Origin: a virus
Taxonomy: Duplodnaviria; Caudoviricetes
Direction: 5' to 3' (one strand)
DNA length: 64,000 nt
Virus record (IMG/VR): IMGVR_UViG_3300007508_000607
Span: 8 to 64,007 of that record
Positions within the stretch are counted from its first letter, which is position 1. Each line of letters opens with the position of its first letter. The notes beneath the pieces are model-generated. The model searched no databases and was not told where the DNA came from. It worked only from the letters and a program-made list of their open reading frames with translations. The position numbers and the translations under genes were made by a program. This document shows, piece by piece, positions 1,329 through 64,000 of this stretch.

Positions 1329-2993
1329 TTGAAGAAAACTTTATTGTTTGTGGCCCCACACCTGTCAACAGGGGGATCACCTGAGTGGCTGAGAAAAGTA
1401 ATAAACACTCTAAAAAATAATTTTAATATATATGTAGTAGAGTTCTCTAATATTTCTCCTAAGTATGTTATTCAAAGAAATAAGATAATAGAATTGGTAG
1501 GAGAAAAAAATTTTTATTCTTTGGGCAATACTGAAGCAGGCAGTAAAGGGTACTACGACAGTAAATATAAAATACTAGAAATAATTAATATAATCAATCC
1601 GGACATTATTCACTTAAATGAGATGCCTGAATTATTTACTTACGGTGGTTTTCCTGAGTCTATTTTAGAAATACTATATAGAAAAAAAAGGCCGTATAAA
1701 ATATACGAAACTAGTCACACATCAGCTGGCGAACCTGATAGTAAGAAAGTATTCCTCCCTGACGGGTTTATACACCCCAGTATTTTACATTTCAAACATT
1801 ACAGAAATTTTGAAATTCCCCAGTATTTAGCTGAGTACCCCATAGAGAAAAGAGAAAAAAAAGACAGACATCTATCTTTAAAAAAACTTAACTTAGACCC
1901 TGAAAAAATACATGTTTTACAAGTGGGACTTTTTTCATCTTGAAAAAATCAAGCATATACTTTTAAGTTGGCTAAAGAGACAGAATCTTTAAATATACAG
2001 TATCATTTTGTTGGTAATAAATGTTTTTTAGAGGAGAGTGGACTACCTGAGTATTTTTTAGATTTAAAAAACTGCAAGATTTGGGGAGAAAGAGGTGATG
2101 TCCATTCTTTCTATTCGGCTATGGATTATTTAGTTTTTCCTTCTACTTGGGAATTAAACCCTATTGTGTTAAAAGAAGCACTGTCCTGGGAAATGAGTAT
2201 ACTATTAAATAATTTACCGTCTTACTATGGTTCGTATGATTGTAATAAAAAGGTACAGTTTTTAACTTTAGACCCGTCTAAAGATAAACACATACTTACA
2301 GAAAATTTCAAAGGAATGTTAAGTAAGTCATCTCCATTACTAATCCCTATATATAGTTTTGAATCATTTCCATTATATATGAAATCTTTATCAAAGTCAT
2401 GCAGATCATCTCTCACAGTATCTAAACAGGATAAAATAATGTCATCTAAAAATCTTCAATTTTACCACGGGACTTTCGAATACATTACTATAGAATCTTT
2501 TATGAAAATGTGGACTAACCAAAAAATACATGAAGGATACCCGAGATGAGGTAGCTGGTCAATAGAATATTTAAAATATTTATTTAATGAAGGTGTTTTA
2601 GAGTGTTTTTATATGAAGAAAAAAGGAAAGGTTATATCGGTACATTTTTTATTTAAATGGGGGGACTATGTATACTGTAATTCACCATTATACGATAAAA
2701 GTAAGTACGACTCAATATCTTTAGGTAAGTTAATGTGGTTTCAATTAATTAAGTACTCTATAGGCCAGAAATTTTGTAAGTATTTAGACTTAGATGGAAA
2801 TAACCGGGGCGATACTTTCAAAAATGTCATAAGTGCACAAGAGACCCCTGGAACTCCCGGAGATTTTGGGTATAAGTGGTTCTTTATTCCTGAAAAAATA
2901 AAGAAAATGGATAATGGGTATAAAAATTTATACAATATAGAAATAGTAACAGATAAGAATAGTAAGCAGATAGAATTTAAAACCAGTGGATAG
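1329..2993 (+). CDS. GT4-type glycosyltransferase fused to a GNAT-like acetyltransferase domain (554 aa, TGA=Trp at 1941 and 2547)
   Basis: Three same-frame ORF-track fragments separated only by TGA; APHLSTGG, VGLFSS[W]KNQ and FPSTWELNPIVLKEA motifs; C-terminal SLGKLMW...YLDL..G...YK. Confidence 0.75.
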
Positions 2994-2994
2994 T

Positions 2995-5493
2995 ATGAGT
3001 AAAAAGTTGATGATAGTAGCACATCCAGACGATGAAAGTATATTTGGGTTCTCTGAGTTAATATCAGACAATAATTGGAAGGTTGTGTCAGTATCTGACC
3101 ACCTAAGACCAAATAATGAGTCTGGATTAGTGGAGTTTAAGAAAGCTATGTCGTTTTATAACATTATTGATTTCGAAATATGGGATTTTACAGCCAGTTT
3201 AATAAAGCACTTCCCTAGTAAAGAGTTGGACAAAAAAATAAAAATCCTAATCCAGTCGTCAGATTGAGGAAAAATAGTTACACACAATCCTATAGGAGAA
3301 TATGGACACATACAGCATAAGGACGTTTTTGATTCGGTACAAAAAGTAACATTTGATTTTTTTGTATTTTGTAAAGATCAGGTAAAATTAAATAGTGAAA
3401 GATTAAAACTAAAAAATGAAGTTCTTAGTATTTATAGTGGAACACAAGACTCTTTTTTAAAAGCCGATTGTCCTTGATGGGTAAGTCCAGACAACTCATC
3501 TAATTATATAGAATATGGGAATGTATCAAAATATTCTGAAGAAAAAAATACATCAGAATTTATTAATTGTTTAGAAAAAGAATATGGGAGTTGGGAACAT
3601 AATTTGAGTCTTAAAAAGAGAAAAAGCTTAAAAGTAGATTTAAAGGGGTTTAGTAAATTAGATGATTTGTTTAATGGGGTTGAAATGGGCAGTAGTAGTA
3701 ATTTAATTATAAAAGATTTTTTTCCATCATTTAGAGATAATGTAAATATTTCTTTTTTGGACGGACCTAAGGTTAGCATTTCAGGGAACTCAAACTGCGA
3801 GTATAATATCAGGTTTATAGACTCCGACTCAGAAAAAATTATATTTAACTCTACTATAACTTCTGGGATGTGGTCACAAGCTAATCAAAAATTTTTTGTA
3901 AGATGATTAATTGAGGTTGAGGACACATCATCAAGAATAGTAGAATCCTTTAATTTCGATTGCTCAGGAAAAATAGTTTATATAAAGTTTTCCAGTAAAG
4001 CGATAGGGGACACTATCGCTTGAATACCTTATGTTGAAGAATTTAGATTACAGAATAAATGTAAAGTTATATGCTCGACCTTTCATAATGACTGGTTTAA
4101 AGATATTTATCCTAATGTGACGTTTGTTCCGCCTGGTTCGTCCCAAGATCAGGTGTATACATCTTTTAGTATTGGATGGTACTATGATAAAACAATGAAC
4201 CCAGGAGACGTCAGAACCATACCGCTGCAACGAACGGCTTCTGACATTTTAGGCTTAAGGTACAGAGAAATAAAGCCAAGTATAAAGGGGGTAAGCGATG
4301 ACCGACCAATTAGTCAAAAATACGTCTGTATTTCAGTACAATCAACTGCACAAGCAAAATATTGAAATTGGCCAGGAGGTTGAGAGAAGATTGTAGAATA
4401 CTTACATGATAAGGGGTACAAAGTGGTTGTCATAGACAAATCTTTTGATTTTGGAAACCAATTAGTTAGAAATGTAGCGCCAAAAAATGCTATTGATAAA
4501 ACTAACGGAAGCCTAGACATGGCCATGAATTACATAAAACATGCAGAACTTTTTATAGGGCTTGGGTCAGGACTAGCTTGAATGTCGTGAGCTATAGGGA
4601 CCCCTGTAATTTTAATATCATCTTTTTCAAAACCGTGGTGTGAGTTTTCATCTGGGTGTGAGAGACTATATAATGATAATGACATATCCGGATACTATAA
4701 TAATTTAAATAATAAATTAGATCCTTCTGATTGAAATTGAAATCCTATAAAAGTCTGTAAAACAAAAGAGGATTGGTATGAAATGGAGACTATTTCCCCG
4801 TTACAAGTAAAGATAGCTATTGATAAATATTTGGATTTTAATACAGAAGATATGTCTGATGAACAGTTAAAAGAAGTTGGAGGATATTTTAAATATTTTG
4901 AGGTTAATGACAGCGACATTGTAGTTGACTTAGGTGCTTGTATTGGTTCTTTTGCTAAAGAAGCATTAAAACGGAATCCTAGTAAGTGTTATTGCGTTGA
5001 AGGGTCTAAAACAATGTTTGATATTTTAAAAAAAGAAATGTCCGTTTATAGCAATGTAAAACTTTTTTACAAGTTTATAGGTGATAATATACAAGATGAG
5101 AATTTATTCTTTACCAGTAATACTGAAGTAGAAGTTATGACATTTTATACCTTCGTAACTGAAAATAATATTAAAAAAATTGATTTTTTAAAAATAGATG
5201 TAGAAGGGTCCGAGTTCGATATCATCAGAGATAGAGATAGCTTGAATTGGATATCCCGTAATGTACGTAAAATAGCTGGTGAGCTGCATTTATTAGGCAG
5301 CGACAGGTCAACACAAATATATAGTTTTATTAAATCTATAGAATCGAGCGGATTCAACCTAGTTTTTAATAGTTTGGACGGGGCCGATATAACTGAAAAC
5401 ATAGTTAGTAATAAGTACTTAAAGTCAGAGGCAACTAGCTCTTTTAATTATTATGATGAAGTGTTATTTTTTGCTTCAAGGGATGAGGTGTAA
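2995..5493 (+). CDS. Tri-domain protein: PIG-L/LmbE-like deacetylase + AAH/TibC-like O-heptosyltransferase + FkbM-like methyltransferase (832 aa, 10 TGA=Trp)
   Basis: Single frame with no TAA/TAG; VAHPDDE and THNPIGEYGH; GDTIA[W]IPY, QAKY[W]N and GLGSGLA[W]MS[W]A; VDLGACIG and LKIDVEGSE. Confidence 0.8.
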
Positions 5494-5496: not shown

Positions 5497-5886
5497 ATGC
5501 AAATTGAAGTATCAAATGGAGAGATTGTAGATAAAATAACGATTTTAAAAATAAAATTAAGAAATATTAAAAGTAAAGATAAGCTGGTAAACATAAAAAA
5601 AGAACTGTTTGAGTTACTCCCTAATTTACGAAAAATAGGGTTAAAACAAAAAAGTTCTTTATTTAAAAAGTTAGAAAGTATCAACTTGACTTTATGAGAA
5701 ATTGAGGATAAATTAAGAGAGAAGGAGTTACGAGAAGAGTTTGACAGTGACTTCGTAAAATTAGCTAGAAAAGTATACTATACTAATGATGAGAGGTCAG
5801 AAATTAAAAGAAAAATAAACATAGAGACTGGATCTTCCTTTATAGAAGAAAAAGGTTACGCTGATTATAAGAAGCAGGAGATTTAG
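5497..5886 (+). CDS. DUF6165-like protein (129 aa, TGA=Trp at 5695)
   Basis: GEIVDKITILKIK...INLTL[W]EIEDKLR...LARKVYYTNDERSEIKRKIN...EEK pattern; family often sits beside glycosyltransferases. Confidence 0.75.
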
Positions 5887-6384: not shown

Positions 6385-7170
6385 ATGCTAACATTAAAAT
6401 CATTGGATGTCAATTCTTTTGATATAAATAGTTTCACACTTACTTGAGAATTTGATCCCACATTTGAACTTATATCTGATTATAATATTGATGTATATAG
6501 ATCAGAGTCCCCCAATCTAGGAGAAATAACAGACTACGATCACGTAGCGTCAGGCATTGCAGCAACCAACTACTCTTACACAGACATAGGCGTATCTGGG
6601 CTTTACGACCCACACCGTAGTTGGTACTATAAAATAAAACTTACAGACACAGATACAGCTGAGACAAATGTAGTACCATATATGCCCGCATATGTAAAAG
6701 ACATAAGTATTGATAAAGTAACAAAACATGTATTAAGAAGAAAGTCTTTAGCTCTAAGGAAGTATTCGGGACGTACATTAAAAGTTTTAAAAAAGAGGTC
6801 CTGAGGAACCAGGTGTACAGAATGTTGGGACGACACCCTTATGAGGGTGACTGATGACTGTAACACATGTTATGGAACTGGGTGGCTAGAAGGGTACTTT
6901 ACACCAATAGAAATAAAAGGAATGTTAAGCCCGTCTCCTAAAATAAACCAGATTACTATGTTTGGGGAATGGATGCCAAGTGACACTTTACTTACTATGT
7001 TAAATTTTCCCCCACTGAAGCCTAGAGACATTATAGTAGATGATGTAAATAAACGATGGATCGTAAAAAATATAAGAACTATTGAGAAGGATGGTTTTAT
7101 AATTGAACAGAGTGCCCAACTAAACTTAATTTCTCAAGATGACCTTATTTATACTATACCAGTCGTTTAA
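6385..7170 (+). CDS. Putative neck/head-closure protein with N-terminal FN3-like domain and Cys cluster (261 aa, TGA=Trp at 6445 and 6802)
   Basis: ATG at 6385 in frame with the 6841 fragment; TLT[W]E...VYRSE FN3-like pattern; CTEC...CNTCYGTGW. Confidence 0.65.
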
Positions 7171-7212: not shown

Positions 7213-7410
7213 ATGAAGTTCATTATAGACGATCTAGATATGAAAGATGAAGGGGAGACTATCTTAAAAGAAGCAGAAATGGAAGTGGTCTCTGAAGCGG
7301 AAGGAGGCATGAAAGATAGTATCGAGTCTACTACTAATATACAAGTAACTCATAACCACATACCAACAGATTTAAAAACTTACCTATTTAAAGAAATAGA
7401 GGGTTTATAA
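7213..7410 (+). CDS. Hypothetical acidic protein (65 aa)
   Basis: ORF after the promoter, TAATG overlap with next gene. Confidence 0.55.
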   Translation: MKFIIDDLDMKDEGETILKEAEMEVVSEAEGGMKDSIESTTNIQVTHNHIPTDLKTYLFKEIEGL

Positions 7411-8312
7411 TGGCAGTTAGCACAGGAAACTTAAGTTTAGATGTAAAATATCTATTTATTACTTTTTTACAAGAGCTATTCTCCGAGGATTCAAAGTTTA
7501 CTTGGAATTCTAATGTAAGAAACACTAAGTTAATAATATCTGATAAAAATGCTATAGATCTTGGAGTAGTTGAAAAAAAACCGGCCTTAATAATTTCAAG
7601 AGGTGCAATGGCTTGGACCTTTACAAGTTTTTCTAGATCAGGCGCTAATCCAGAATTTTTGTATAAAGACGGAAAAGAGACGTTGGCCGGGCCATTAGGG
7701 TCTGCTGACTCAATAAAAAATTCCTCAGTCACTGACTTATTGAGAGCATCAGTTACAATAACGTGTGTAGCAAAACACGGGGTATTGGCAGAAGAACTTG
7801 CAAACTTAGTATTTACGGCTTTAACCGCTAATAAGACAGACTTAAGAGCGAACGGTATTCATAAGATTCAAGCCCTATCTTTTGGGGAAGAACAAATTTT
7901 AAAGTCTAGTTCTGGTATTGATTTGTCAGCAGTGGCAGTACAAATGCAGTACTTGACGCAAAAGGAAATAAGAAGAGGAGAAAAACAGTACAACATACAG
8001 ATATGGAAAGATGGTGTAGAGCAGTATGAAGGAATAGACTATAGAGTCGAGTTACCTTATGCCACGGATGTCATCTTTGAAGTGGACCCTGGAAGTGACT
8101 CAGTAGTTACCGGATCATACCTAGACGCTATATCAGGAGATTCTCACAACAAAGTTACTTTTGTAAGGGTTTCTTCGGCACACTACTCTGTTCCAATAAA
8201 CAGTGTGTATGGGTATTATAGAGTTGTAGAAGGAATGCTTATCGATATACCAGAAGAAAACGATGTCCTTGTGACGTCGGGCGGGCAATTTGTGCTCGTA
8301 GGAGAATCATAA
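7410..8312 (+). CDS. Putative tail completion/terminator protein
   Basis: 300-aa ORF directly before sheath; PALIISRG...SVTITCVAK...AEELA pattern. Confidence 0.55.
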   Translation: MAVSTGNLSLDVKYLFITFLQELFSEDSKFTWNSNVRNTKLIISDKNAIDLGVVEKKPALIISRGAMAWTFTSFSRSGANPEFLYKDGKETLAGPLGSADSIKNSSVTDLLRASVTITCVAKHGVLAEELANLVFTALTANKTDLRANGIHKIQALSFGEEQILKSSSGIDLSAVAVQMQYLTQKEIRRGEKQYNIQIWKDGVEQYEGIDYRVELPYATDVIFEVDPGSDSVVTGSYLDAISGDSHNKVTFVRVSSAHYSVPINSVYGYYRVVEGMLIDIPEENDVLVTSGGQFVLVGES

Positions 8313-8430
8313 ATACAAGGCTAGAATGTATCAAATTGCAGCAAAAGACGTTGCAATTTACATCTGAGCTTATCTAGCTAGAGCTCAGTATAATAACAAT
8401 ATTATAATATTATAATTGGAGGAAAAAATA

Positions 8431-10053
8431 ATGGCGTATGTCAAACCTGGAGTTGAAATAACTCAAGTACAAAACACGGCTACACCGGTTTTAATTGCTC
8501 CCGACTTAGAAGCAGTAGTTGTTGGTAAAGGGTACTATTGGCAGGACCCTACTCTTGATTCATCAGAGTACTCTGTCAGTTATTCTGGAGCCAGCATGAC
8601 TATTAACTTAAGTGACATAAACTCAGACTTTAACTCATTAGTTTCTGTAAATGACGAAGATCTCATTGTTGTTGACCTTTATGGTTCTGCAACAGTAGGG
8701 CAAGGAACAGAAGTGAAGCATCTTGTAAAAGATACTGATTGGAGTTATTCTAACGGTGATGTTACTCTTGTTTCTGGTATTACCACGCCAGGCTCAGGAA
8801 GTGCTTATGAACTTGCTTCTGTAAAGATTGGCTTTAGGGCCGATAATAGCGAAGCTATGGGATTTAAGAAAAGTTTAGCAAGTCCGGACGATATTAAAGA
8901 CGTGTTTGGTGGGGAAATAGTAAGTTGGAACCCACTAGCATATGGTGCGAAGTTAGCACAGGACAATGCATCTGCATCTGTTAATACTTATTGTATAAGC
9001 GGCGTATCAAGTATTTCCACAGAAATGTCCAGTGCAAGATCAGCACTAGCTTTAGAAGAGGTTTATGCTATAGGTGTTTTAGATAGTAAAGCAGGATCAA
9101 GTGGTTGGAAGTCTCATGTAGAGGACTATTCAGACGCAGTAAATAAAAAAGAGAGAATTGTATTCTTGACGGATGACGTAGTATATGGTGACTATGAGGG
9201 GAACAGTACTAGTGAAAAAACCACTATTGCTGAAACTTTAAGAACTAATAATGCAACATTCCAATCAAAAAGAATGTTTATGGTTCATCCTGATGTAGCA
9301 TATACGGACAGTGGATCACGACACATATCTACAGCACACCCTGACTGGATTGACGCAAGTTTTAAAGAGCACACTGGATTTGATATGTCTAGCCGAGGTG
9401 CTTATGCGTTATTCGCAAAGCCGGAGTCTGTTGGCAATAAAAATTATAAAGTAGGAGATAAAATCACTAGCTCTGTACATGCTGAATTAGTTTCAGCAGG
9501 GTATCATAGTGTATTTGTTTTTTCTCCTATCCCTGGTTTTTATTTTAATGCAGCAAATGCTGGGTTATGTGTAGGAGTTGCTCCAGAAGCACCCTTATCT
9601 AATGTTCCTATCTCAGGAATTTCTAGGACTTACGGATCTCAGGATTACTTTACAGAGGCTCAAATGAACACCATGGCTGAAGGCGGTACTTATATTATGA
9701 CTCAACTTTCTAGCTCGGCTCCCATTGTATCTAGGCATCAAACTAGTACCGATGTGACGAGTGTAGCTAAAAGAGAGTTAAGTATTACCAAAGCTTTAGA
9801 CTATACTGCCAAATTTTTAAGGAAGGGGTTAAATCCTTATATTGGTAGACACGTAGTAACACCTGCATTTTTAAAAATGTTAGAAAGTGTTCTTATTAGT
9901 CAAGGGCTATTCTTAGTACGAGCGGGAGTATTAAACGACTTGCAAGTTGCAAGTGTAAAACAGGATGATGCTAATCCAGATACTATTCAAGTAGAACTTA
10001 GTCTCTTGGTTAAGTATCCTGTTAACTACATTAAAATAAAAATGGTATTTTAG
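8431..10053 (+). CDS. Contractile tail sheath protein
   Basis: GGAGG RBS; N-terminal YVKPGV, C-terminal RELSITKALDY...DTIQVELSLLVKYPVNYIKI sheath signature. Confidence 0.9.
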   Translation: MAYVKPGVEITQVQNTATPVLIAPDLEAVVVGKGYYWQDPTLDSSEYSVSYSGASMTINLSDINSDFNSLVSVNDEDLIVVDLYGSATVGQGTEVKHLVKDTDWSYSNGDVTLVSGITTPGSGSAYELASVKIGFRADNSEAMGFKKSLASPDDIKDVFGGEIVSWNPLAYGAKLAQDNASASVNTYCISGVSSISTEMSSARSALALEEVYAIGVLDSKAGSSGWKSHVEDYSDAVNKKERIVFLTDDVVYGDYEGNSTSEKTTIAETLRTNNATFQSKRMFMVHPDVAYTDSGSRHISTAHPDWIDASFKEHTGFDMSSRGAYALFAKPESVGNKNYKVGDKITSSVHAELVSAGYHSVFVFSPIPGFYFNAANAGLCVGVAPEAPLSNVPISGISRTYGSQDYFTEAQMNTMAEGGTYIMTQLSSSAPIVSRHQTSTDVTSVAKRELSITKALDYTAKFLRKGLNPYIGRHVVTPAFLKMLESVLISQGLFLVRAGVLNDLQVASVKQDDANPDTIQVELSLLVKYPVNYIKIKMVF

Positions 10054-10063
10054 GAGGTAGAAA

Positions 10064-10735
10064 ATGAAAAATTTACTAAATTGGAACTTCAAATCTGGTA
10101 ATGTACAATCAGTTACGAATTCTACAGATTTTCTTTCGTCTGAGTCAGTTATTCTGTGCGCAGGTACTCCGCGATACGATGATATGGACAGCCCACTAGC
10201 TGAACTTATTCCTGTAGGATTAATTCAGAATGCTACGGTTTCTCAGAATAAACAAATTCAACAGTTGTTTGAAATTGGCTCTAGAGAGCCTGTGTTTATA
10301 CCTGGAAGAACAGTAGTGCAGGTTGCTGTATCAAGGATTTTATTTGATGGAGAATCGTTAATGCGTGCATTGTATTCTAACGCCAACCCTGATTTCGCTG
10401 ATTCAGTGTTTAAGGGGGAGGGTGACGATAGAGCACCTGGGTTACCTTATACGACTGCAGGGAGCTCGAGCAAGTTTTTTATAAACTTAGCAGCAGAGTT
10501 CTTTAACAGGCCTATGGGATTAGCTTTTATTCTAGAAGATATGGACAATGACGAAGCTGGGACATCACGATATGGTGGATTTTACTTAGAAAATTGTAGA
10601 ATTCAGTCGCATCAGTTCTCTGTTGCTAGTCAACAAACTATCTTGTTGGAGAATATTGGACTTAGAACTTCTAAGTTAATTCCTATACATGTTAGTGATC
10701 AAATATCACCTGATAAAGTACAAACAGAAGTATAA
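10064..10735 (+). CDS. Tail tube protein
   Basis: AGGAGG RBS; follows sheath; GLIQN...QQLFEIGS...IPGR tube-like motif. Confidence 0.8.
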   Translation: MKNLLNWNFKSGNVQSVTNSTDFLSSESVILCAGTPRYDDMDSPLAELIPVGLIQNATVSQNKQIQQLFEIGSREPVFIPGRTVVQVAVSRILFDGESLMRALYSNANPDFADSVFKGEGDDRAPGLPYTTAGSSSKFFINLAAEFFNRPMGLAFILEDMDNDEAGTSRYGGFYLENCRIQSHQFSVASQQTILLENIGLRTSKLIPIHVSDQISPDKVQTEV

Positions 10736-10762: not shown

Positions 10763-10805
10763 AAAAAAATAGGGAGGAGTTTTCCTCCCTATTTCTTTAT
10801 TTTTT
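10763..10805. terminator. Bidirectional intrinsic terminator between convergent blocks
   Basis: AAATAGGGAGG-agtttt-CCTCCCTATTT with A run before and T-rich run after. Confidence 0.85.
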
Positions 10806-11168
10806 ACTTAGCCCACTTTCCTTCAGACACAATCCTTGAAATAACTCCGTAGACAGACAAATCTCCGAAAGCATCCACAACAGATTCATTCTGTGGCTCT
10901 CTCATTGTTTTCACAACTAAATTCAAAAGTCTCTGAACCTTATCATTCATTCGTATTATAAGACCTGTCATACTCATCCTTATCTCACTTTCATCATTCA
11001 AACTTGTCCCCAAACTAATATTCCCAGGCCCATAGTCCATCTGTTTCTCACAGAATATCTTATAGTCTTCTGACTGAATCTCTTTAAATCGTTCCATCAT
11101 GCTAGGGTATACTCGCTCACAATACGCTATAGCATCTTCTTTTTTACTACTACTTTTATTTCTATTCA
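10804..11168 (-). CDS. DUF1599 / nucleotide-modification-associated domain protein
   Basis: FCEKQMDYG...IRMNDKVQRL...ESVVDAFGDLSVY motif. Confidence 0.7.
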
Positions 11169-12926: not shown

Positions 12927-13732
12927 TTTAAAAAATCCTCCAAAGTTTTGGAATGTTTCTTACTCCGCAACTTTTTTAATATCTTTTCTTTTATTTGTCT
13001 TATTCTTTCTCTTGTTAACCCCATATCTACGCCTATCTCTTTTAGAGTGTACGGCCTAACTTGCTCAATTCCGTAGTACATCTTTAATATACTCTTTTCC
13101 CTTTTAGGGAATGTTTTCAGTACGTGAGTTAGCTCTTTTTTAAACTCTTCATCTGTTTTTAATACGCCATAAGATAAATCAGCGGGTATAACCTCATTCA
13201 AAGTTTCATTATTTTCAGTATGTGGCGTATCAAGCCCAATCACTGTGTAGTTAAATTTTAAATCTCTTATAGCTGTTGTATCTCCTTCTAAATATTCTTC
13301 CAACTCATTCATAGAAGGGTACCTTCCTAAAGTATTTTCTAAACTTTCTGAAGCTTTTGTAGCTTTAGTGATGTTAGAAATTTTATTTAAAGGAAGTCTT
13401 ATAGTTTTTGCGTTTTCATGTAGTGAATTAAATATAGCTTGACGAATCCACCAAACAGCATAAGTAATAAATTTTACGTCCTTACTTACATCGAACTTCT
13501 CAAATGCTTTTACTAGCCCTAAGTTACCCTCTGATACTAGTTCATCTATTGTAAGTCCTTGATTTTGGTACTTTTTAGCCACACTAACAACAAATTTTAA
13601 ATTAGATATTATTACTTGTTCTCTTGCAGCATTATCACCATTCTTTCCTTTTTTTATTAATGCCCGCTCTTCTTCTTTACTTAAAGGAGTGCTAGGTATA
13701 ATAGATTTTAAATAGTAACTGAATGCATCCAT
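12914..13732 (-). CDS. RpoD/SigA-like sigma-70 factor (regions 2-4)
   Basis: NLKFVVSVAKKY, EGNLGLVKAFEKFD, KFITYAVWWIRQ, TLKEIG..MGLTRERIRQI. Confidence 0.92.
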   Translation of the reverse strand: MDAFSYYLKSIIPSTPLSKEEERALIKKGKNGDNAAREQVIISNLKFVVSVAKKYQNQGLTIDELVSEGNLGLVKAFEKFDVSKDVKFITYAVWWIRQAIFNSLHENAKTIRLPLNKISNITKATKASESLENTLGRYPSMNELEEYLEGDTTAIRDLKFNYTVIGLDTPHTENNETLNEVIPADLSYGVLKTDEEFKKELTHVLKTFPKREKSILKMYYGIEQVRPYTLKEIGVDMGLTRERIRQIKEKILKKLRSKKHSKTLEDFLKWDT

Positions 13733-13746
13733 ATTTATTTTTGATT

Positions 13747-13778
13747 AAAAAAAAGGGCACATCAATGATGCACCCTTT
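13747..13778 (-). terminator. Intrinsic terminator after the Ubl operon
   Basis: On - strand AAAGGGTGCATC-att-GATGTGCCCTTT followed by a T run. Confidence 0.7.
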
Positions 13779-13797
13779 ATTGTTATAAATGTTTGAA

Positions 13798-14001
13798 CTA
13801 GTTTTTTGCTTGGAAGTATGATCCCATAGCATCAACTACTCCTTGACCTGCGATATACGAAGGTACAATTGTAGTAATAGCTCCAACTAAGTTTTCAGCC
13901 ATTGCAGGATCTAGTCCTGCCCAGTCTACGATAAGTACGGATAAAACTCCGCCAAATGCAACCCATAGCTTCCTACTTGATAATTTCTCTTTCCAATTCA
14001 T
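13798..14001 (-). CDS. Small membrane protein, holin-like (67 aa)
   Basis: KLSSRKLWV followed by two hydrophobic segments. Confidence 0.5.
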   Translation of the reverse strand: MNWKEKLSSRKLWVAFGGVLSVLIVDWAGLDPAMAENLVGAITTIVPSYIAGQGVVDAMGSYFQAKN

Positions 14002-14266: not shown

Positions 14267-14286
14267 ACTTTAATATAATCAATATT

Positions 14287-15308: not shown

Positions 15309-15309
15309 T

Positions 15310-15567: not shown

Positions 15568-15599
15568 GTTTTCTTACCATGGTTTTTTTGTTTATAATA

Positions 15600-17672: not shown

Positions 17673-17700
17673 TTTGTTTCCTTTGGTTTACTCAAATGGT

Positions 17701-18228: not shown

Positions 18229-18232
18229 TATA

Positions 18233-20203: not shown

Positions 20204-20204
20204 A

Positions 20205-53520: not shown

Positions 53521-56500
53521 ATGAGAATAAAAATACCATCAGGAACAGTACAGAATTTAGAGAAAGTATTTGACGATCTTCAGGTAGCTGTACAATCAAA
53601 CTTGTCTAAAAGACTGAATACATTATTTAATTCTTTTGCAATTCCAGTCGACTTGGTAAACGGGGACGTTTCTATATCAGACTCTACTTTAAAAGTTTTT
53701 TCACAGCCAACATCCGGGGTACCAACACAATTTTTAGTTCAACCAGGTAAGGCATTTTTTAGTAATGGTAACCTACTAAATTTAGAATCAAACACATATT
53801 TTTCTCTCCCGGAATTAGGGATAACTACACAAGCTGATACTATATATCTTATAAAAGGATCATTCCAAGAAGTAGGTAGTAACCCAGTGTCAGCAATGAA
53901 TGCTTTTTTATATGATACTTCGGGAGAAACTCCTTATTCTAAAAGAAACACTTTATATACCGATTCATTCATACCTTCTATTAAAGTATTGGTTTCTGGG
54001 GATAACCTAAATTCATCTTTAATTGTAGACCCATTGAATGAAGTTCCATTAGCAATAGTAAAAACTGATAGTACTGGAAAATTAATTAATACGAGTACTT
54101 TCACATTTCTTGACTCATCGAGTAAAACATGGGTATCTGATTCAAATGGTGTTATAGACTTGAGATCTTTATCCTCACTAAAAATATCAAAGAATGTTCT
54201 TGACGAGAATGATGTAATTTTAAAAGATAGGGATTCTACAGGAAATTTTAAACAGCAAGGTAAGGTTGAGTTTGGTGATGATATACTTGTATCTGACGAT
54301 GTTTTTATTGTAAATAAAAGCGAAGGAAAGGTTGGGATAAAAACTGGTACTCCTACTTCAGAGCTAACAATTGATGGTAATATAGAATTTACTCCTAGTA
54401 CGTCGAGACGAGTATATATGGGTGGGCAAGCAGAAGCCACTTTTGGAGTTGCTTATTCTACTGATATGCCAGATCACGGTATTTTTTATACGGAGGGTTC
54501 TCCTGATATTATAAACCTGTCCCCTAATGGAAGTTCAGTTGCTGGGGTAGTCACCGTTACTGGTGATGGGAAAGTAGGTATAAATAAAACAAACCCTGAT
54601 GAAGCATTGCACCTAGAAGGAAGTATTAGGGGCGACCAAGATGGCGGATCAATAAGAATTCAAACAGCAAGTGGGTGGACAAATATCGGTTCACAAAACA
54701 GTAATTGAACTCACATACAAACAGATAGAGAGAGATTTTATTTTAATAAAGAAGTAGTTGTAAATACCGGAAAAATCAGTTCTTATGATGAGAATTTAGT
54801 TTTGAAGGCTGACTACGATAACTCTATAACGGACAATCAACTATATTTAAAAACAGACGGGTCTATTGGTGTTGGGTACGTACCATCTTCTACAGATATA
54901 TCATCTTTACATATTAAACAGACGTCTGACTTGTGGAAAGCTTTGACTATCCATAACGCTGATGATACTAGTTCTATTAGTGTATATACTGGAACAAGCG
55001 AATCATTTATAGAGACAGACTCTACCTCAAATTTAGTAATTAAAACTGGTAGTAATGACAGAATTTTAGTAAGATACCTTGATGGCCATGTGGGAATTAA
55101 TAATCTATCTCCAGATGAAATGCTTCATGTTATCGGAAACATAAAATCATCGGACACTATTTACTCAAAAGATGCAGACTTGTCTGGAAATCTTACAGTG
55201 AATAAGTTAGGAACAATACAGAATTTAACTGGAGGGTTTGCACAGTTACAAGAAGTTAACATTGTTGGGGACGGCGGACTTTCAGTTTCTGGGGGGTCAG
55301 CATCTATACAAACGTTATATAATGCATATGGGACAATAGAAAATTTAGATGTTAGTAACTCATCAACAATAAATGAAGCATCAATTAAAAGTTTGAGCGT
55401 TCCAACTGCATCTGGTCAAAACTTTACTAATATGGGTGCAGGATTTGATAGGTCTGGAAACCTGGCTTTAGGGGTTAACAAGCCTATAAACACTGAAAAC
55501 TCTAGACTTTTAGTAAAAGGTGACACTAGATTTTTTAATGACTCTGGTAGTGCAGCCAATTTTAATCTTGGTGGCGTTGCAACTTCTGGTGGATTTAACT
55601 TTCAGGTCAATGGATCAGATATGGAAGTCACAGGCCCTGGAGGACACGTTGCTTCCTTTAGAAGCTTAGACGGAGTTTTATATTCTCCTAAAATTCTAGC
55701 AGACGATATAGACTTAGTCCAAGACCCAACATTAAGCGGTACCCGTACCTTTGGGTGGGGCTATGCTAACATGAGTATACTTGATATTGATGCTAATGAA
55801 GTTAGGACGGGTGGAGCAAGTATAGGACAATCTTCTGAATTTACTGGAGTGACGACTTTACATGACGCAGTTATATATGGACTTACATTAGGTGGAGGCG
55901 ATGAAGGATCCAATGTATATATAAGTGGCGTTACAAATGAAGAATTTTATCTAGGTCTTGGAACTGATAACCAAAGAATGGTAGCTACGGTAGCAGGAAC
56001 CCCAACAACATTAACAAATTTCAGACTGTATGATATATACCCGACATCTAATAAAGAAGAGCAGGCTGGATTTGTGTCATTGAAGTGGAATTATGATGGA
56101 TTAAGTTTTGTAGCAGGTCAAGCTCCGTCAGTAGGGGGAAATACCGTGAAGCTTACCCATTTTACTATGTCTAGCAATGATTTACTACTAGCTTCTGGAA
56201 AAACATTGTACTTAGAAGAAACATCTAATTCTTATGAGATATTGTCTATAGTAGATAATAGTACTGACATTGAAGTTACAATAAGAGGAGTCTTCTCACA
56301 AAGTGACCAAGACTCTGCAGCTACTGCTCGCATTGTAGATAGACATGTTACTGATTATGTTTTAAAATGTATCGAGTTAGATTTAAATACATCACAACCA
56401 ACTGGGTATGTAGAAACATATATGCTAGATTCTGAGTTTGTAACTAACCCAAATTATATCGTAAAGTTAAACTTAGGAAAAAGATGGTATTTTGAATTAA

Positions 56501-57177
56501 AGGGTAAAAACTCTTACTTAGAAGGTAGCTTTGAAAGAATGCCAGCAGGTACATATGATCCTGATCATGACGGGGTAGGCTATGTTTCTTACTCACAAAA
56601 TTACTTACATGAGCTGCCGGACATAACCACAGCAGCGGGTATATCTTTAACGAGCAGTGTATTTGGATTTAATATTGAGATTGTGGGAAGTGGTTGGTAC
56701 GATTCGACAGATGATCAAAATAGCGCGCATGAATTTGAAGTAGTTTACTCAAAAACAGAGAACCCCTCTTTTTCTGCATCTGATACAAGCGTCACAAAAT
56801 TTATAACTGGGAACAAACTTACTCCTGTTACTACTAATACGCCGTCTATGTGGTACGTAAAGGTTAGGCCTTTACAGAATAAACAACCCGTTGGAACAGA
56901 ACTTTACAGTGATATAGTCAGTGGTGGTGGTGGTATAGCTCCTGGGGACCAGATTTTGGTGCAGATGCCTGTGAATGTTACAGTAGTTTCAGGGTTAGTA
57001 ACCAAAGACGTAGGAACGGGAGACGTTACTTTTAATGCTTTTGATAAAAATGGGGATGAAATTACTATGGGTAACGGCGAACAGACTGGTAAGGATATTA
57101 TTATAAAAGACTCCACTGGTAGTACTAATAAGGGAGAAACAAAAATTAACAGGCACTCAACAACCTTTAGCGCATAG
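53521..57177 (+). CDS. Tail fibre / large virion protein (1218 aa, TGA=Trp at 54706)
   Basis: GKVGI repeats; IGSQNSN[W]THIQTDRERFYFNK module; FN3-like segments. Confidence 0.8.
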
Positions 57178-57612: not shown

Positions 57613-58641
57613 ATGGCTTCTTATAAGGCTAGACTAGACAAAAGTGGTGTAATGGCCTCCATATATAATTCTAATAGCATTAGAGTTGATGTGGATGTGA
57701 CTGATAAGTATGGTTTTTATGAGTTTAAAAATTTAGTAACAGGTCCATACCTAATAAAATTTTATGGTATGGGGTACTCGTCAGATGACAATATAAATAT
57801 TAGCATAGTTGACGAATTCGATGCAGAGGACACAGCTCCTTTAACTTTTCAAACTCCACCTGCTTTAGGCGTTACAGAAGGTAACCCATTTTCAGGACAA
57901 CAGGGGGAAGGTAGTGAAGGTATATTTGCATTCAGTAATCTACAACCATCCACAGGAATCTTAGGTAAAGTAGATATTTTTTATAAATTATCATCATCCT
58001 CAGATTATAATGTCCTATTTTCTTTAAGTATAGGAGACGATACTCCCGGTTATGATAAAGCAAATGGATTGCTAGAGACTGACTTTCCAATAGAATTGGT
58101 AGATAAGCCCTCTACTTATGATTTCAAAGTTTTCTTTTTTAACCCTTCCAGTGAGCCAGCTTTAAATTCATCCAACGACACTATTACTGCAGATGACACA
58201 TCTATAACCTTTAACGGTATTCCAGATTTAGACGAGTACATAGGAGTAACAGGTGTAGAAGTCAGTAACAGTAATGCTGCTGGCACAAAAGTACCTACTA
58301 ATGAAATTATAGTTACATGGGATGACATGTCTAATGAATCTGCTGGTACTTACGAAGACGCATCCGGTAGTTCTGTGACCGTATCAGAAAATCAGTTAAA
58401 AAATATATCTTCTTATATTGTATATATGTATGTGAGTGCTGGTACTTCGCCCCCTTCAAACGGTGAAAATTATCCTAATAAAACAGAAACTAATGGAGAG
58501 TGGTACATGCTGGATACAATTCATTCTAGCCAGCAGAGAGCCAGCCTAAGAGTTCCTCAACAAAAATCAGTTATGCTGTGAATTGGTTTTCTTACAGGAG
58601 GGACTTCTTCGTCTACTACAAGTAATGAGTACAACTTCTAG
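57613..58641 (+). CDS. Ig/FN3-like virion protein (342 aa, TGA=Trp at 58579)
   Basis: TDKYGFYEFKNL..G.Y carboxypeptidase-regulatory-like motif; VTWD FN3-like. Confidence 0.6.
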
Positions 58642-59277: not shown

Positions 59278-60423
59278 ATGAATGAATATAATATACACTT
59301 TGTTTCCTACCCAGTGTTACCAGTACAATATTATCATAATGTTTATGGAGGCAACCCCTTCAACCAAAAAACATATTTATTAAGTAGGACTTTAGTTAAA
59401 AACGGGATAAAAACATACTACTACGGATGGGATGATAGTGAGTTTATATGCACTAAGAAATTTAATGTAGATACTCACAAAAAATATATTTATAAAAATA
59501 GGAGTAATCTTGTGCGCGGGTTATCTCAGAAAGCCATAGAAACCTGAACAGCCAAATTTTTAGATCAATACAAAAAAAATAAGAGCTCAGGAATAGTAAA
59601 TGATAAATCCATTTTTTTATTTTCTGGAAATTGTTCTATCATACCTGCTATAAATGATGCATTAACTAAAGATAACATGATAACATGCGAATACCCTGTT
59701 GCTTATTTAGTATCATCTAGTCAATACAAAATTTTTGAGTCTACTTCAATCCTACATTTATTCATGGGATGAAATCACTGTAATAATACTAACCACATTA
59801 GTTGACAAGACATTAGAAAGATAGATACAGCTAATCCAAATTTCTGACTATACAAAAAAATTAGTCCAATAATGGATGTGGATGCTCTTACTTTTTCTGA
59901 AACTTGCTCTGGTTATCATCTATATATTGGGAGGCCTATTGAAACTAAAGGAATATCTATAGTGCTTTCATTGATTAAAGAGTTTCCAAATGAGAAGTTT
60001 GTTTGTATGTTTAACAATGACCACACATACTCCTTCCTAGAGTCTGCAAAAAACGTAACTATTCATAAGTCACCAGAGTTTAGTGATAAAATAAATATTA
60101 TAAAAAAAGCAAAATCAATCCTTTCACCAACATTAGCTTCAGAATGTTTTGGGAGTGCCCACGTTGAAGGGCAGTTATGCGGAGTGCCCGCAATAACCAC
60201 TGATTGGGGGGCTTATACAGAAACAGTTAAAAATGGTGTAAACGGTTTTAGGTGTAGAAGTTGGGACGATTTTAAATCTGCTATAAAAAATGTAGGGAAT
60301 TTAAACCGGGCTGATATATCAAAAGAAGCGCATATTAAGTATGGGGAAGATCAGTTCAGTAAATTTGACTCTTTTTTTAAGTATATGGTTACAAATAAAT
60401 TTAATGGGTGGTACGGAACCTAA
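59278..60423 (+). CDS. GT4 glycosyltransferase (381 aa, 4 TGA=Trp)
   Basis: LYIGR...KG, ECFGSAHVEGQLCGVPAITTDWG. Confidence 0.85.
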
Positions 60424-60425
60424 CT

Positions 60426-61193
60426 ATGAAAAACTATACTTTTATATTTATAACTGGCGCTTATAATACAGCTTCATACGCAGAAAGATATTTTAAAAGT
60501 ATCTTCTCACAGACTTATAAAAATTATAATATCTGGTATGTGTGTGATGGGTGCACTGATGGTACCTATGATATTGCCAAGAAGTATTTACGTCAAGAAG
60601 ATACTTTAACTGTGAATCCCTATTCAAATCGAGGGCCTATGGCATCTACATTAAAAAATCTGTCTCACCACAAAAGAGATGAATCTGAAGATACCATTTA
60701 TATATATTTAGATGGGGATGACTGGCTTTGTGATAATAAAGTATTGGAATACTTAAATGATGAATTTCAAAATGAAGACACTTGAATGGTATACAATGGA
60801 GCTTCTATGGTGACTACTAAAGACTTAGATACTCCATCTGAAGAACGTTTTGGTGTAGAAAGTGCTTATACGAAAGAAGAGTATATGAAAGGACTTCGTG
60901 GGGTATACTATTGAAAAGGATGGCATTTAAAGGCATGGCGAGCTCCCTTGTGAGATTATATTAATCACTCTAGATATAAAAATCTTTTCCATGCTGGTGA
61001 TCGAGCTTGATTCTATGACTTATTCGATCTATGTGGATTTAATAGGGTAAAACCTTTAGAAAAACCTTTAATGGTATATAATCTTCATAACCCTTTAAAT
61101 CACCATAAAGTACATGAGTCAGCTGAGAAAGAAATACAATATATAAGCACTATACCTCCTTTAAAAAAACTTAAAAGCTTAACCAAGGTCTAG
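60426..61193 (+). CDS. GT2 glycosyltransferase (255 aa, 4 TGA=Trp)
   Basis: AYN...SIFSQTY, DGCTDGT, LDGDDWL; readthrough fills the gap to TAG 61193. Confidence 0.85.
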
Positions 61194-61194: not shown

Positions 61195-62295
61195 ATGAAT
61201 AAAGTAAGAATACACGTGCACGGGCCAGTAAACACTATAACTAGTAACTCAGATAGACGCTTTATTTCGTGCCCATACACTACGAAAATGTTTAATATAT
61301 GTAAAATGTTCCATGAGAATGGGCATGAGGTTTTTCATTATGGGGTTGAAACGTCTAACCCACCCTGTACTGAAAATATAGAGTACATTCCTTACTCTGT
61401 GTGAGATGCTGCGCATGGGGCAAAATCTATAGAGAAAGACTATGAACAAACAGGTCTTTCTTACTCGTCATATCAGTTTGCAGAGCAACATCTGTTTAAT
61501 GAGTTAGAAAAAAGAGTGAAAGGGAAGACTGATGTTATACTAAATGGAATTGGGTGATGGACACACAAATTGGAAGATATAAATAAATTAGCACCTCATA
61601 TTGAATTTGGTATAGGCCATCCGGGAGCTGGAGCGCCCTATCAAGTTTTTGAAAGTTATGCTTATCAGAATCATCAATACGCTGAAGATAAACACTTTTC
61701 TAGAAAATGGGTGGGGAATGTAATACCTGGATATATAGATGAACAATACTTTTATTATGATTCAACTATAAAACAAGATGTAAAAAAACCTTATCTTTTA
61801 TTTCTTGGTAGAGTTATAAGTAATAAGGGTGTGGAGTTGGCGGCTCAGTTAGCAAAATACTGTGGAATGACATTAAAAGTTGCTGGTCACGGTGACTATA
61901 GTATACTAAGTGGGTACGAAGATATAGTTGAATACTTGGGAGTTGTAGGGCTGCATGAAAAAATAGACTTGATTAGAAAGGCACATGCAATGATGGCCTT
62001 AACTTATTATGTGGAGCCTTTTGGCAACAGCCACGCTGAATCTTTGATGCTTGGGACTCCTGTTATAAGCACAGATTGAGGAGTATACACTGAAACAATT
62101 CAAAATGGTAAAAATGGATTCAGGGGAAGATTCTGGTCAGATTTTTTAAAAGGTATAGAGGGCGTAAAGAACTTAAACAGGGAGGAAATATCTAAATTAG
62201 CATATAATAAATTTTCCTTGGAGAGTGTATATCCTAAATTTAATAAGTACTTTTCTGATGTATTAAATATTCATAATAATGGGTGGTATTCATAA
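61195..62295 (+). CDS. GT4 glycosyltransferase, paralog of 59278-60423 (366 aa, 3 TGA=Trp)
   Basis: LFLGRVISNKG, EPFGNSHAESLMLGTPVISTD[W]G. Confidence 0.85.
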
Positions 62296-62322: not shown

Positions 62323-62823
62323 ATGGGAACTAGCTACTGCGGGTTCAGAAAATTTATTGTTGACTATTTAAAAGACACTTATAGTGAAGATGCTACTATA
62401 CTTGATGTTGGGCCAGGGATAGGGACTTATTACTATATACTTAACCATTACTTTAAAAAAATAGATTGCGTTGAAATTTATAAACCATATATTGACGAGT
62501 ATAATTTAAAGAGTAAGTACCAAAATGTTTATAATTGTGATATACTGGGCTTTGATCTCTCCAAGTATGATGTAGTTATTATGGGCGATGTTTTAGAGCA
62601 TATTTCAATAAAAAATAGTACACTTCTTATAGATAGTATACTTAAAACATGTAAAGAAGTTATAGTAGTAGTTCCTTGGCAATATAAACAAGGTGAAATT
62701 AATGGTAATATATATGAAGCACATAAACAAGATGACTTAACAAAAGATGTTATGTTAAGTCGATACCAAAATTTAAAGTGTATAAAATATAATGATCACA
62801 GCGGGGTTTTTGTAAAGTGCTAA
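62323..62823 (+). CDS. Class I SAM-dependent methyltransferase
   Basis: ILDVGPGIG, GDVLEH; GAGG RBS. Confidence 0.8.
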   Translation: MGTSYCGFRKFIVDYLKDTYSEDATILDVGPGIGTYYYILNHYFKKIDCVEIYKPYIDEYNLKSKYQNVYNCDILGFDLSKYDVVIMGDVLEHISIKNSTLLIDSILKTCKEVIVVVPWQYKQGEINGNIYEAHKQDDLTKDVMLSRYQNLKCIKYNDHSGVFVKC

Positions 62824-63863
62824 CTATAAACATAATAGTAAAGAATGAGGAAAGTAATATTGAAAGATGTTTAAACAGTGTAAAAAATATTGCTGATTTT
62901 TGGGTATTAGTTGATACTGGATCTACTTCAGAAGTAACAGCTGACCTTGCGATGCGCGTTATGTCAGGCATCCCTGGTAAAATAATATATTTAAATGAAT
63001 TTAAAGATTACTCATATGCAAGAAATATTGCTTTGGATGAATCTTCAAAAAATACTTGGATATTAAGTATTGATGCTGATGAGGAGTTTAGGGGAGAATT
63101 ACCTTTTTTAGATGATAGTGCTTCACGATATAAAGTAAAAATATCTGATGGATACCAAGATTTTTGAAACTATAGATTATTTAATAAAAAATTCGGATCA
63201 AATTGGGTAGGCCCAATTCATGAGATAGTAGAATTTGAAAAAGAGGGGCCAATACTCGAGAGCCCTGATTTTTATTTACATCATTATAGATCTGGTACTG
63301 CTATGACCTCTAAAGAAAAATTTAATTTTTATTTCTCTAAACTTTTAGATGATTATGAGTCTACTGGTAGTCCTAGATCATTGTTTTACCTATTTAAAAC
63401 TTTAGTAGAGACCCCATACGAAAGTGTTGACCTAGATAAAATTTTATATTATGGTAAAAAGTGTTTAGACTCAGAAACTATTGGAAACGATGAGAAGTAT
63501 ATATGTAGTTTTTTTATAGGAGATGTTTACTTTAATAAGGAGTCTTTTAATAACGCCTCTTTTTGGTATGAAAAATCTTTAAATTACAACAGAAAAAGAA
63601 AAGAATCTTTAGCAAGGTTGATGCAAATCCAATGTAATCTTAAAAATTATGAGTACGCCTATAAGATTGGGTGTATTGCTGATATAGAATATAAGAGTGA
63701 TTTTTTTGTGAAGTTGAGGGATGTGAACGAAATTTTTTGATTGTACTTTGAGCTAGCATGTTATTATTCTGGGCGACTCAACAAGGCCAAAGAAATTAAT
63801 ACATATTTACAAGCTACTTATCCAAATAATAAATTATACAAAACTAATGGAGAATTTTATTAG
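62817..63863 (+). CDS. GT2 glycosyltransferase with TPR-like C-terminus (348 aa, TGA=Trp at 63165 and 63738)
   Basis: IVKNEE, VDTGST, ARN.AL, IDADE, W.G.IHE, helical TPR-like tail. Confidence 0.85.
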
Positions 63864-64000
63864 TGCCTACTCTTTCTAAAAATATATCGGGATATTGAGA
63901 AAAAACTGTATTAGACACCGAGCAAATCGGTCCTCCCGGACCTACTGGAGATACCGGAGCTCAAGGTCAGACAGGAGATCAAGGAGCTCAAGGACCAACC
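63863..64000 (+). CDS. Collagen-like (Gly-X-Y) protein, 3' partial (TGA=Trp at 63896)
   Basis: GTG overlapping the previous TAG; GPPGPTGDTGAQGQTGDQGAQGPT. Confidence 0.75.

Follow-up and report, generated by a model that had tools for sequence, protein, structure and literature searches.

Evidence for the reading of in-frame TGA codons as tryptophan in the structural and glycosyltransferase genes of a tailed phage from marine metagenomes

The window, i.e., the whole stretch of DNA analysed here, comprises 64,000 nucleotides (nt) and corresponds to bases 8-64007 of a single virus record of 64,007 bases, IMGVR_UViG_3300007508_000607. Tail sheath, baseplate J/wedge, and tail fibre genes were recognized on its + strand by Pfam and PHROG searches. 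Many genes of the window hold TGA codons in frame, and the reading of this codon is the subject of the present analysis. The GC content was 35.4% and no terminal repeat was found. CheckV assigned a completeness of 31%, and the phage genome was estimated at about 200 kb. The runs that hold the window sequence are labelled marine or seawater metagenomes. Isolated phages were only distant, i.e., the top PolA identity was at most 28.7%. Shine-Dalgarno-like motifs preceded 20 of 61 starts, which is uninformative on the host. For comparison, one IMG/VR phage was used as the close relative. It is represented by four records (G001-G004) that are 99.98-100% identical among themselves and shares approximately 79% nucleotide identity with the window (74-82% over window positions 5889-58166).

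With genes called under code 4, 54 in-frame TGAs were found in 20 genes. Of these, 52 were in 18 genes of the + strand and two were on the - strand (21673 and 23182). The genes and gene blocks concerned are as follows, in window positions; "relative" means the close relative, and protein lengths are in amino acids (aa).

1329..2993, + strand: glycosyltransferase group 1 and GNAT-like gene (Pfam PF00534 and PF13480 on the code-4 translation); TGA at 1941 and 2547
2986..5493, + strand: 835-aa fusion of PIG-L, TibC-like GT9 heptosyltransferase, and FkbM methyltransferase (Pfam); ten TGAs, at 3265, 3475, 3904, 4021, 4363, 4381, 4579, 4588, 4732, and 4738
5497..5886, + strand: DUF6165 gene (Pfam PF19662); TGA at 5695
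6385..7170, + strand: gene of unknown function; TGA at 6445 and 6802, both TGA in the relative
7213..10735, + strand: TGA-free genes including the tail sheath gene (8416-10053; PHROG tail sheath); 0 TGA and 9 TGG
10804..34189, - strand: replication (early) block of 28 genes (PHROG, Pfam) with 86 TGG and 2 TGA, stops TAA or TAG only; it contains PolA, sigma factor, ThiF, JAB, ribonucleotide reductase, dUTPase, RecU, AAA_24, exonuclease, MBL, AEP primase, Holliday-junction endonuclease, CCA-adding enzyme, peptide deformylase, and helicase
21386..21907, - strand: P-loop gene within the early block; one TGA (21673-21671), in a stretch unaligned to the relative
23132..23860, - strand: GT2 gene; TGA at 23182-23180, the would-be stop under table 11, TGG in the relative
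30184..31662, - strand: tRNA nucleotidyltransferase (CCA-adding enzyme; PHROG 2244, E 1.3e-37), TGA-free
32029-32550, - strand: peptide deformylase
35294..38551, + strand: 1085-aa tape-measure-like gene, three pieces under table 11; TGA at 35894 (TGA in the relative) and 36293 (TGG in the relative)
38555..41185, + strand: 876-aa tail or baseplate gene, with orthologs in the more distant relatives G005 and G006; TGA at 39902 and 40112, both TGA in the relative
41189..42322, + strand: 377-aa gene; TGA at 41765 and 42149, no TGG
43058..45157, + strand: 699-aa gene; TGA at 44156, 44219, and 44366, the last two TGG in the relative
45599..47221, + strand: baseplate J/wedge gene, 540 aa (Pfam PF04865, PHROG 6); TGA at 46478, TGG in the relative
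47221..48840, + strand: 539-aa baseplate-region gene; TGA at 47356, 47542, 47989, and 48442, three of the four TGG in the relative; conversely, the window's TGG at 47884 and 47905 is TGA there
48842..50749, + strand: 635-aa gene with a PKD-like domain (sub-threshold Pfam match); TGA at 48947, 50480, 50681, 50705, and 50714
50774..53503, + strand: 909-aa tail fibre gene (PHROG 18345); TGA at 51191, 53210, and 53486
53521..57177, + strand: 1218-aa fibre-like gene; TGA at 54706
57613..58641, + strand: 342-aa gene; TGA at 58579
59278..60423, + strand: GT4 glycosyltransferase (Pfam PF00534); TGA at 59545, 59770, 59803, and 59845
60408..61193, + strand: GT2 glycosyltransferase; TGA at 60783, 60912, 60951, and 61008
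61195..62295, + strand: GT4 glycosyltransferase; TGA at 61402, 61555, and 62077, with the Pfam domain (residues 195-309) spanning 62077
62817..63863, + strand: GT2-TPR gene; TGA at 63165 and 63738

The gene at 35294..38551 had no family matches, so its function was assigned from position and length.

TGA is a sense codon in the window. Under table 11, the + strand genes were broken into same-frame pieces, which were fused when TGA was read as sense. In greedy gene calls, TGA-sense reduced the genes from 88 to 62 and raised the coding density from 0.909 to 0.974. This gain was large compared with the controls, i.e., TAG-sense (93 genes, density 0.938) and TAA-sense (84 genes, density 0.919), and it agrees with the original prediction, for which such a re-call of genes had been proposed as a check. 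That prediction had also counted about 50 in-frame TGAs on the + strand by hand, close to the 52 found here, with readthrough up to a TAA or TAG beside the next start. All 59 counted genes ended in this way, 39 in TAA and 20 in TAG, a few bases from the next start. The open frame after a TGA had a median of 245.5 codons, against 13.0 expected from the out-of-frame TAA/TAG density. In the 7194 non-overlapping codons downstream of TGAs, no TAA or TAG was found.

These stretches, which table 11 leaves untranslated, diverge as coding sequence does. Their mismatches to the close relative were distributed over codon positions 1, 2, and 3 as 137:76:418 (some segments overlap), and those of all genes as 1762:983:6253. 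In single cases, the ratio was 5:4:36 for the 78 codons after TGA 6445 and 24:10:65 for the 137 codons after TGA 54706. Three doubtful short open reading frames (ORFs) with 10 TGAs were left out of all counts and judged spurious, i.e., ORF 901-1152 (six TGAs), ORF 13745-13966 (two TGAs; the relative carries CGA and TCA there), and ORF 34282-34449 (two TGAs). The likelier gene 926-1225 (no TGA, two TGGs, TAA stop) is also outside the counts.

The TGAs were also stable between data sets. Fourteen of them are kept as TGA in the close relative. Contigs of two DNA runs from two studies reproduced positions 44001-64000 with nine differing places and two three-base indels, none in a TGA codon; these contigs may themselves be the source of the window. 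A contig from an RNA library covers 50321-50514, including TGA 50480, without difference. Contigs of RNA libraries overlap portions of the late genes, but because DNA may be present in these libraries, the contigs are evidence neither of transcription nor, apart from the one unchanged TGA (50480), against RNA editing. Miscalling of TGG, which the original prediction had named as a possible refutation, is thus opposed by the agreement of both runs at every TGA in 44001-64000.

The residue was assigned by codon pairing and by distant homologs. Codon pairs were counted only if they were in frame in both phages, which gave 8949 + strand pairs; this excluded six odd pairs of cruder counts, whose codons in the relative were out of frame. 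The window/relative pairs were TGG/TGG (42), TGA/TGA (14), TGA/TGG (10), and TGG/TGA (11). Thus TGA or TGG was the partner in 35 of the 37 pairs holding TGA, 21 of them TGA/TGG swaps, and a Gly, Ser, Cys, or stop codon was the partner in none. TGA columns that align to Gly or to random residues, the other named refutation, were therefore not what the pairs contained.

Homologs were searched with X placed at each TGA. In DUF6165, all homolog representatives (150 of 150) had Trp in the column of TGA 5695. Eight TGAs fell in the part that aligned to TibC (PDB 4rap, E 4.7e-45), six on Trp and two on Phe, and TGA 4579 and 4588 aligned with both Trp of 'sglswlawa'. Both families had been named beforehand as carrying TGA at conserved Trp, and so they do. 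In the GT2 gene 60408-61193, the four TGA columns were Trp in 12, 6, 4, and 3 of 13 homologs (60783 being the column with 12 of 13). The three closest homologs had Trp in all four, and each of the 13 had an aromatic residue in the third column. The internal control of the original prediction was reproduced, i.e., the TGG of ...TTDWGAYTE in the gene 59278-60423 aligned opposite TGA 62077 in ...STDxGVYTE of its paralog. Against distant GT4 structures in PDB, TGA 62077 stood opposite Lys, Ser, or Asn, so the column is not conserved in the family.

For TGA 50480, PDB searches with the whole PKD-like protein and with the domain alone gave nothing meaningful, and a homolog search with residues 515-612 returned only two predictions of the same gene. 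This codon is TGA in the relative as well, and the PKD match to Pfam was below the threshold (25.6 bits versus 27). The gene 48842-50749 occurs twice in a public protein collection, as a 635-aa protein (P0284) and as a 460-aa protein ending at TGA 50480 (P0285).

The share of TGA plus TGG among codons was nearly equal on the two strands, i.e., 1.185% on the + strand and 1.174% on the - strand, against 0.79% and 1.15% for TGG alone. Code 25, in which TGA is Gly, did not agree with the data. No pair with GGN was found among the 37, no Gly was present in the DUF6165, TibC, and GT2 columns, and one Gly was found among 24 window TGAs aligned to G006. Selenocysteine (Sec) did not agree either, with 54 sites and no pairs with TGT or TGC; SECIS elements were outside the search. 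Together, four independent lines, i.e., the TGA/TGG swaps, the conserved Trp columns, the third-position divergence, and the equal share of TGA plus TGG, support the reading of TGA as Trp in the window.

This reading does not extend evenly over the window. The 31 genes of the + strand hold 52 TGA and 103 TGG, and the 28 genes of the - strand replication block hold 2 and 86 (Fisher p = 6e-10), which is not what a plain table 4, with TGA as Trp in all gene classes, would give. In the - strand block, 61 of 61 Trp pairs had TGG in both phages, without any TGG-to-TGA swap. Only one of 27 - strand ORFs ended in TGA under table 11, at a codon for which the relative has TGG. This ORF belongs to the GT2 gene 23132..23860, which under code 4 ends with the TAA at 23132, beside the next start at 23130. 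Both - strand TGAs sit in a glycosyltransferase-type insert (21315-24159; two GT2 genes and the P-loop gene) that barely aligned to the relative. The sheath region was also without TGA, although its nine TGGs are a small sample.

The recoded codon is therefore enriched in late/structural genes and depleted in replication genes; a lysis gene is absent from the window. Because the replication genes are essentially free of TGA both as sense codon and as stop, they are read correctly under either code. With the replication block and the sheath region both poor in TGA, the genome is block-structured. Recoding had originally been predicted for the whole of 1329-64000. It is upheld for the late and glycosyltransferase genes, with the refinement that the replication block (10804-34189) and the sheath region (7213-10735) are essentially TGA-free.

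The wider clade was searched by PolA homologs. IMG/VR contigs of 180-210 kb with PolA identity of 42-55% were matched in synteny to the window; G011, G012, and G014 were near-copies of G005, G008, and G009 and were not counted as independent. Two relatives were TGA-recoded, i.e., coding density rose under TGA-sense from 0.853 to 0.934 in G005 and from 0.867 to 0.920 in G006. Five others (G007, G008, G009, G010, and G013) were not recoded, and 24-30% of the ORFs of these standard-code members end in TGA. In the recoded relatives, the TGA/TGG counts were 3/71 (G005) and 0/67 (G006) in orthologs of the early block, against 75/58 and 61/98 in orthologs of the late genes. Window TGAs aligned to G006 (n=24) fell on Trp (12), TGA (6), Phe (3), and others (3), and G005 TGAs aligned to the window (n=41) fell on TGA (12), Trp (10), Tyr (5), Phe (3), and others (11), unverified greedy ORFs being included in both. 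In the primase tree, the four recoded rows were on one side of a branch (SH-aLRT 92), but the sheath tree was unresolved.

The near-complete relatives encode 17-29 tRNA genes by ARAGORN, and 21-32 matches to the Rfam tRNA model were found. A tRNA with the anticodon UCA (UCA tRNA) was present in both complete recoded relatives and in none of the five standard-code relatives (three near-complete, two partial). Its loci are L175:10650-10746 in G005 and L164:5786-5883 in G006. Its length is 97-98 nt, and it has a long variable arm, the discriminator G73, and an encoded CCA. On the late strand and away from the main tRNA cluster, it precedes an endolysin-like gene by 18-34 nt; this gene matched PHROG endolysin/amidase in G005, and G006 has a 49%-identical ortholog of it. 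The UCA tRNA marks the boundary between the fibre genes, which are rich in TGA, and a module free of TGA that includes a portal-like gene. Within the main tRNA cluster of G005, a tRNA with the anticodon CUA (105393-105469, - strand; 'Pyl' in ARAGORN) was also seen, where TAG-sense raised the density only from 0.853 to 0.869.

A pattern scan built from the UCA tRNA of the relatives gave 12 loci in viral and metagenome contigs. Further variants were found at L263 and L265-L268, the latter four being unrelated metagenome contigs that are TGA-recoded; for L268 (31% GC), the density rose from 0.722 to 0.835 under TGA-sense. Among the contigs examined, long-arm UCA tRNAs occurred only in TGA-recoded ones. 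Common to the six variants are an acceptor stem of 7 bp and anticodon and T stems of 5 bp each. Seven compensatory pairs were counted across them, which indicates that the UCA tRNA is maintained. The acceptor end has A1-U72 in five of the six variants (or G1-U72), G2-C71, G3-C70, and G73. It matches the tRNA-Trp(CCA) of the phages themselves and not their tRNA-Ser (G1-C72, A3-U70). These positions are presumably identity elements of TrpRS. ARAGORN labelled the UCA tRNA as tRNA-SeC, and the Rfam tRNA-Sec model gave 48.5 bits for G005 (cut-off 47) and 32.5 bits for G006. The label is weak, because the same model gave 50.3 bits to a phage tRNA-Ser(UGA).

The whole explanation that we consider likely is that a tailed marine phage with a genome of roughly 200 kb, about one third of it in the window, switches TGA to Trp at a late stage of infection in a standard-code host, with a UCA suppressor tRNA encoded outside the window. 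TGA would be a Trp codon in the late genes, i.e., those of the tape measure, baseplate, and tail fibres and of two glycosyltransferase islands. The host would use the standard code, as the avoidance of TGA in the early genes and the TGA stops of clade relatives suggest. By analogy with the complete relatives, the phage would bring its own UCA tRNA, probably just beyond the right end of the window beside an endolysin gene. No homolog of the relatives' endolysin module was found in the window, and in the relatives the UCA tRNA follows the orthologs of the window's last fibre genes at a distance of 5.7-8.6 kb, so a copy of its own would lie beyond the right end. The late proteins would be made only after the Trp-charged UCA tRNA accumulates, and the replication genes would be readable with or without suppression. 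Of this, the sense role of TGA at places of Trp, the block structure, the lack of TGA terminators, and the restriction of the UCA tRNA to recoded relatives are direct findings, whereas the standard code of the host, decoding by the UCA tRNA, its charging with Trp, and the timing of late expression are inferred, the mechanism being taken from the relatives. A broader version is more tentative, somewhat short of an even chance: the recoded members of this marine clade of about 200 kb may switch code with a long-arm UCA tRNA of an undescribed type, with a Trp-like acceptor end, upstream of the endolysin gene and without RF1 or TrpRS of the phage, the copy of the window lying beyond its right end.

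Several points weigh against this explanation. No tRNA, release factor, or TrpRS gene was found in the window, as the original prediction had noted for suppressor tRNA and release factor, nor in the 52-60 kb of the close relative. The pattern scan recovered no UCA tRNA for the lineage of the window, none of its loci sharing more than 106 bases with the window. Since only about a third of the genome lies in the window, the lack of a suppressor tRNA there does not indicate that the phage has none, and the many tRNAs of the relatives fit the CCA-adding enzyme of the window, so that its lack of tRNAs says little. Two Rfam matches in the window, an L20-leader (31.4 bits versus the cut-off 58.7) and a snoRNA (E 0.92), were rejected as chance. 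The link between UCA tRNA and recoding comes from only seven independent lineages, and the early/late timing is deduced from gene function and strand. In the fibre gene, two in-frame TGAs of the close relative have AGG and TAT as their window partners, and the two Phe of TibC are opposite TGA 3904 and 4732. The whole-sequence similarity of the UCA tRNA is split between tRNA-Ser(UGA) and tRNA-Trp(CCA). No RF-1 domain or TrpRS/TyrRS-type (class Ib) synthetase was found in G005-G009, which leaves unexplained how competition by RF2 would be overcome. Moreover, the long variable arm and G73 favour charging by SerRS rather than TrpRS, according to sections of Mukai et al. (PMC5389517).

Two alternatives accept Trp but explain its insertion otherwise. 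The host itself may use code 4, as Mycoplasma and Spiroplasma do, and the phage would then share the code of its host without any switch of its own. The AT-rich window, the fragment without suppressor tRNA, RF1, or TrpRS, and the presence of RecU, which is typical of Firmicutes and Mollicutes, fit this explanation. We consider it quite unlikely, because the replication block with its 86 TGG against 2 TGA and its invariant TGG pairs would stay unexplained while the late genes swap freely. The same early/late split was found in G005 and G006, members of the same clade end about a quarter or more of their ORFs (24-30%) in TGA, the recoded members bring their own UCA tRNA, and the sequence comes from runs labelled marine or seawater. 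Alternatively, TGA may be read as Trp without a dedicated suppressor, by near-cognate pairing of a tRNA-Trp(CCA) of host or phage combined with interference of the phage with RF2, while the UCA tRNA serves another purpose. G005 and G006 do carry tRNA-Trp(CCA), the UCA tRNA resembles class II or Sec-like tRNAs, and TGA suppressors were detectable in only 35% of code-4 phage genomes in the main text of a preprint (10.1101/2021.08.26.457843). However, tRNA-Trp(CCA) is also carried by the standard-code G007, the UCA tRNA tracks recoding (two of two versus none of five), its compensatory pairs show it to be maintained, and genes with up to 32 TGAs would demand very efficient readthrough. This reading is therefore possible but unlikely.

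The two other alternatives concern the codon itself. TGA may stand for another residue, i.e., Gly (code 25), Ser inserted by a long-arm UCA tRNA charged by SerRS, Cys, or selenocysteine. The tRNA-SeC label with the score of G005 above the cut-off would favour this, as would the fact that long-arm tRNAs with G73 are substrates of SerRS in sections of PMC5389517. The pairs speak strongly against it, none of the 37 being with GGN, TCN, AGY, or TGY. Trp was found in the homolog sets at 150 of 150, 12 of 13, and 6 of 8, the Sec label is weak, and 54 sites are far above the numbers of Sec insertions, so that a residue other than Trp is very improbable. For an artefact or decay, i.e., miscalled TGG or the pseudogenes of a dead element, no favourable point was found. 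The TGAs kept in a phage of approximately 79% identity, the agreement of contigs from two DNA runs (possibly the source of the window), the dominance of third codon positions in the divergence after TGAs, and the lack of any TAA or TAG in the codons downstream of them make it extremely improbable. The late-stage switch with a phage-encoded UCA tRNA thus remains our preferred explanation.

Other features were observed beside the recoded genes. Sugar-modifying genes are numerous, i.e., the fusion 2986-5493, the four GT4/GT2 genes at 59278-63863, and the two GT2 genes at 22459-23860, and this gene content suggests that the phage may glycosylate its own proteins or the host surface. In the replication block, ThiF (E1-like) and a prokaryotic JAB adjoin at 14287-15320 (- strand), a ubiquitin-like conjugation/deconjugation pair that is kept in G005 and G006. 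The 911-aa primase (27090-29825, - strand) matched the AEP domain of the 'TOTE conflict system' Pfam family. The ribonucleotide reductase ORF of the close relative (L003:16380-19361 in G001) is 993 aa long, against 664 aa in the window (18233-20227). The nucleotide alignment breaks off at this place, and an insertion, e.g., an intein or homing element, is suggested.

The baseplate J gene (540 aa) and the next gene (539 aa) are separate in the window, with the TAA overlapping the ATG at 47219-47223. The best-matching ORFs to 45599-48840 in G005, G006, G007, and G010 were 1018-1050 aa, apparently fused. At the right end, the gene 63863-64000 encodes collagen-like Gly-X-Y repeats (..GPPGPTGDTGAQGQTGDQGAQGPT) and runs off the window. 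The right-end protein had no matches among viral contigs. The contigs of two runs also break at 63936-63965, in the collagen-like repeat, which probably stopped the assembly. At the left end, a fibre-like protein matched 80 loci, all with 24-44% identity, so no close relative was obtained and it was set aside for extension of the contig.

The consequences are practical as well as biological. Table 11 cuts 20 genes of this fragment into pieces, and a public collection already holds the full and the truncated form of one of them. With TGA lost from the replication genes in either role, sense or stop, the genome bears a clean signature of the temporal-switch model. Because the clade also has standard-code members, it forms a natural series in which the rise of a code change can be studied. 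If the long-arm UCA tRNA does insert Trp, it would be a new natural tRNA scaffold of orthogonal appearance and would raise the question of how TrpRS accepts it.

This is a known kind of phage code switch, to which the phage adds a marine case. Late-gene recoding of TGA to Trp is mainly known from gut phages and is extended here to a marine clade of about 200 kb. In the main text of the Borges/Peters preprint (10.1101/2021.08.26.457843), TGA-to-Trp phages of human and animal guts, including the Agate and Jade clades, are described, with mixed codes within clades and, in Jade phages, a code-change operon adjoining the lysis cassette. The present clade resembles them in placing TGA on Trp, in holding recoded and standard-code members together, and in that candidate suppressor tRNAs are detectable in only some genomes. 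It differs in its marine or seawater origin, in the lack of RF1 and TrpRS in five near-complete members, and in the candidate suppressor of the relatives, which is long-armed and called tRNA-Sec. Selenocysteine, the variable arm, and marine samples are not mentioned in that main text, although similar tRNAs may be in its supplementary tables. Literature searches, with most subscription journals outside their coverage, found no paper on marine TGA-recoded phages or on a Sec-like Trp suppressor.

According to sections of Mukai et al. 2017 (PMC5389517), Sec-like allo-tRNAs in phages and bacteria and selC* tRNA-Cys(UCA) opal suppressors insert Ser, Ala, or Cys. The UCA tRNA of the relatives is likewise a non-canonical long-arm tRNA, and some of those tRNAs also carry the UCA anticodon as opal suppressors, but it has a 7/5 acceptor/T arrangement in the consensus fold and a Trp-like acceptor end, and the codon evidence demands Trp. 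In crAss-like phages, blocks of different genetic codes are the subject of the Mgcod tool (10.1101/2022.06.29.495998). The present phage, which belongs to a myovirus-like clade with a tail sheath and not to Crassvirales, likewise has a block-divided genome with a stop codon reassigned in one part only. Unlike in those phages, its non-recoded block has essentially no TGA and no TGA stops, and hence is code-neutral. Organisms of NCBI table 4, such as Mycoplasma and Spiroplasma, also read TGA as Trp and terminate with TAA and TAG alone. However, their code is that of the cell and covers all genes, whereas here one gene class excludes TGA, a pattern that speaks for a code switch in the course of infection.

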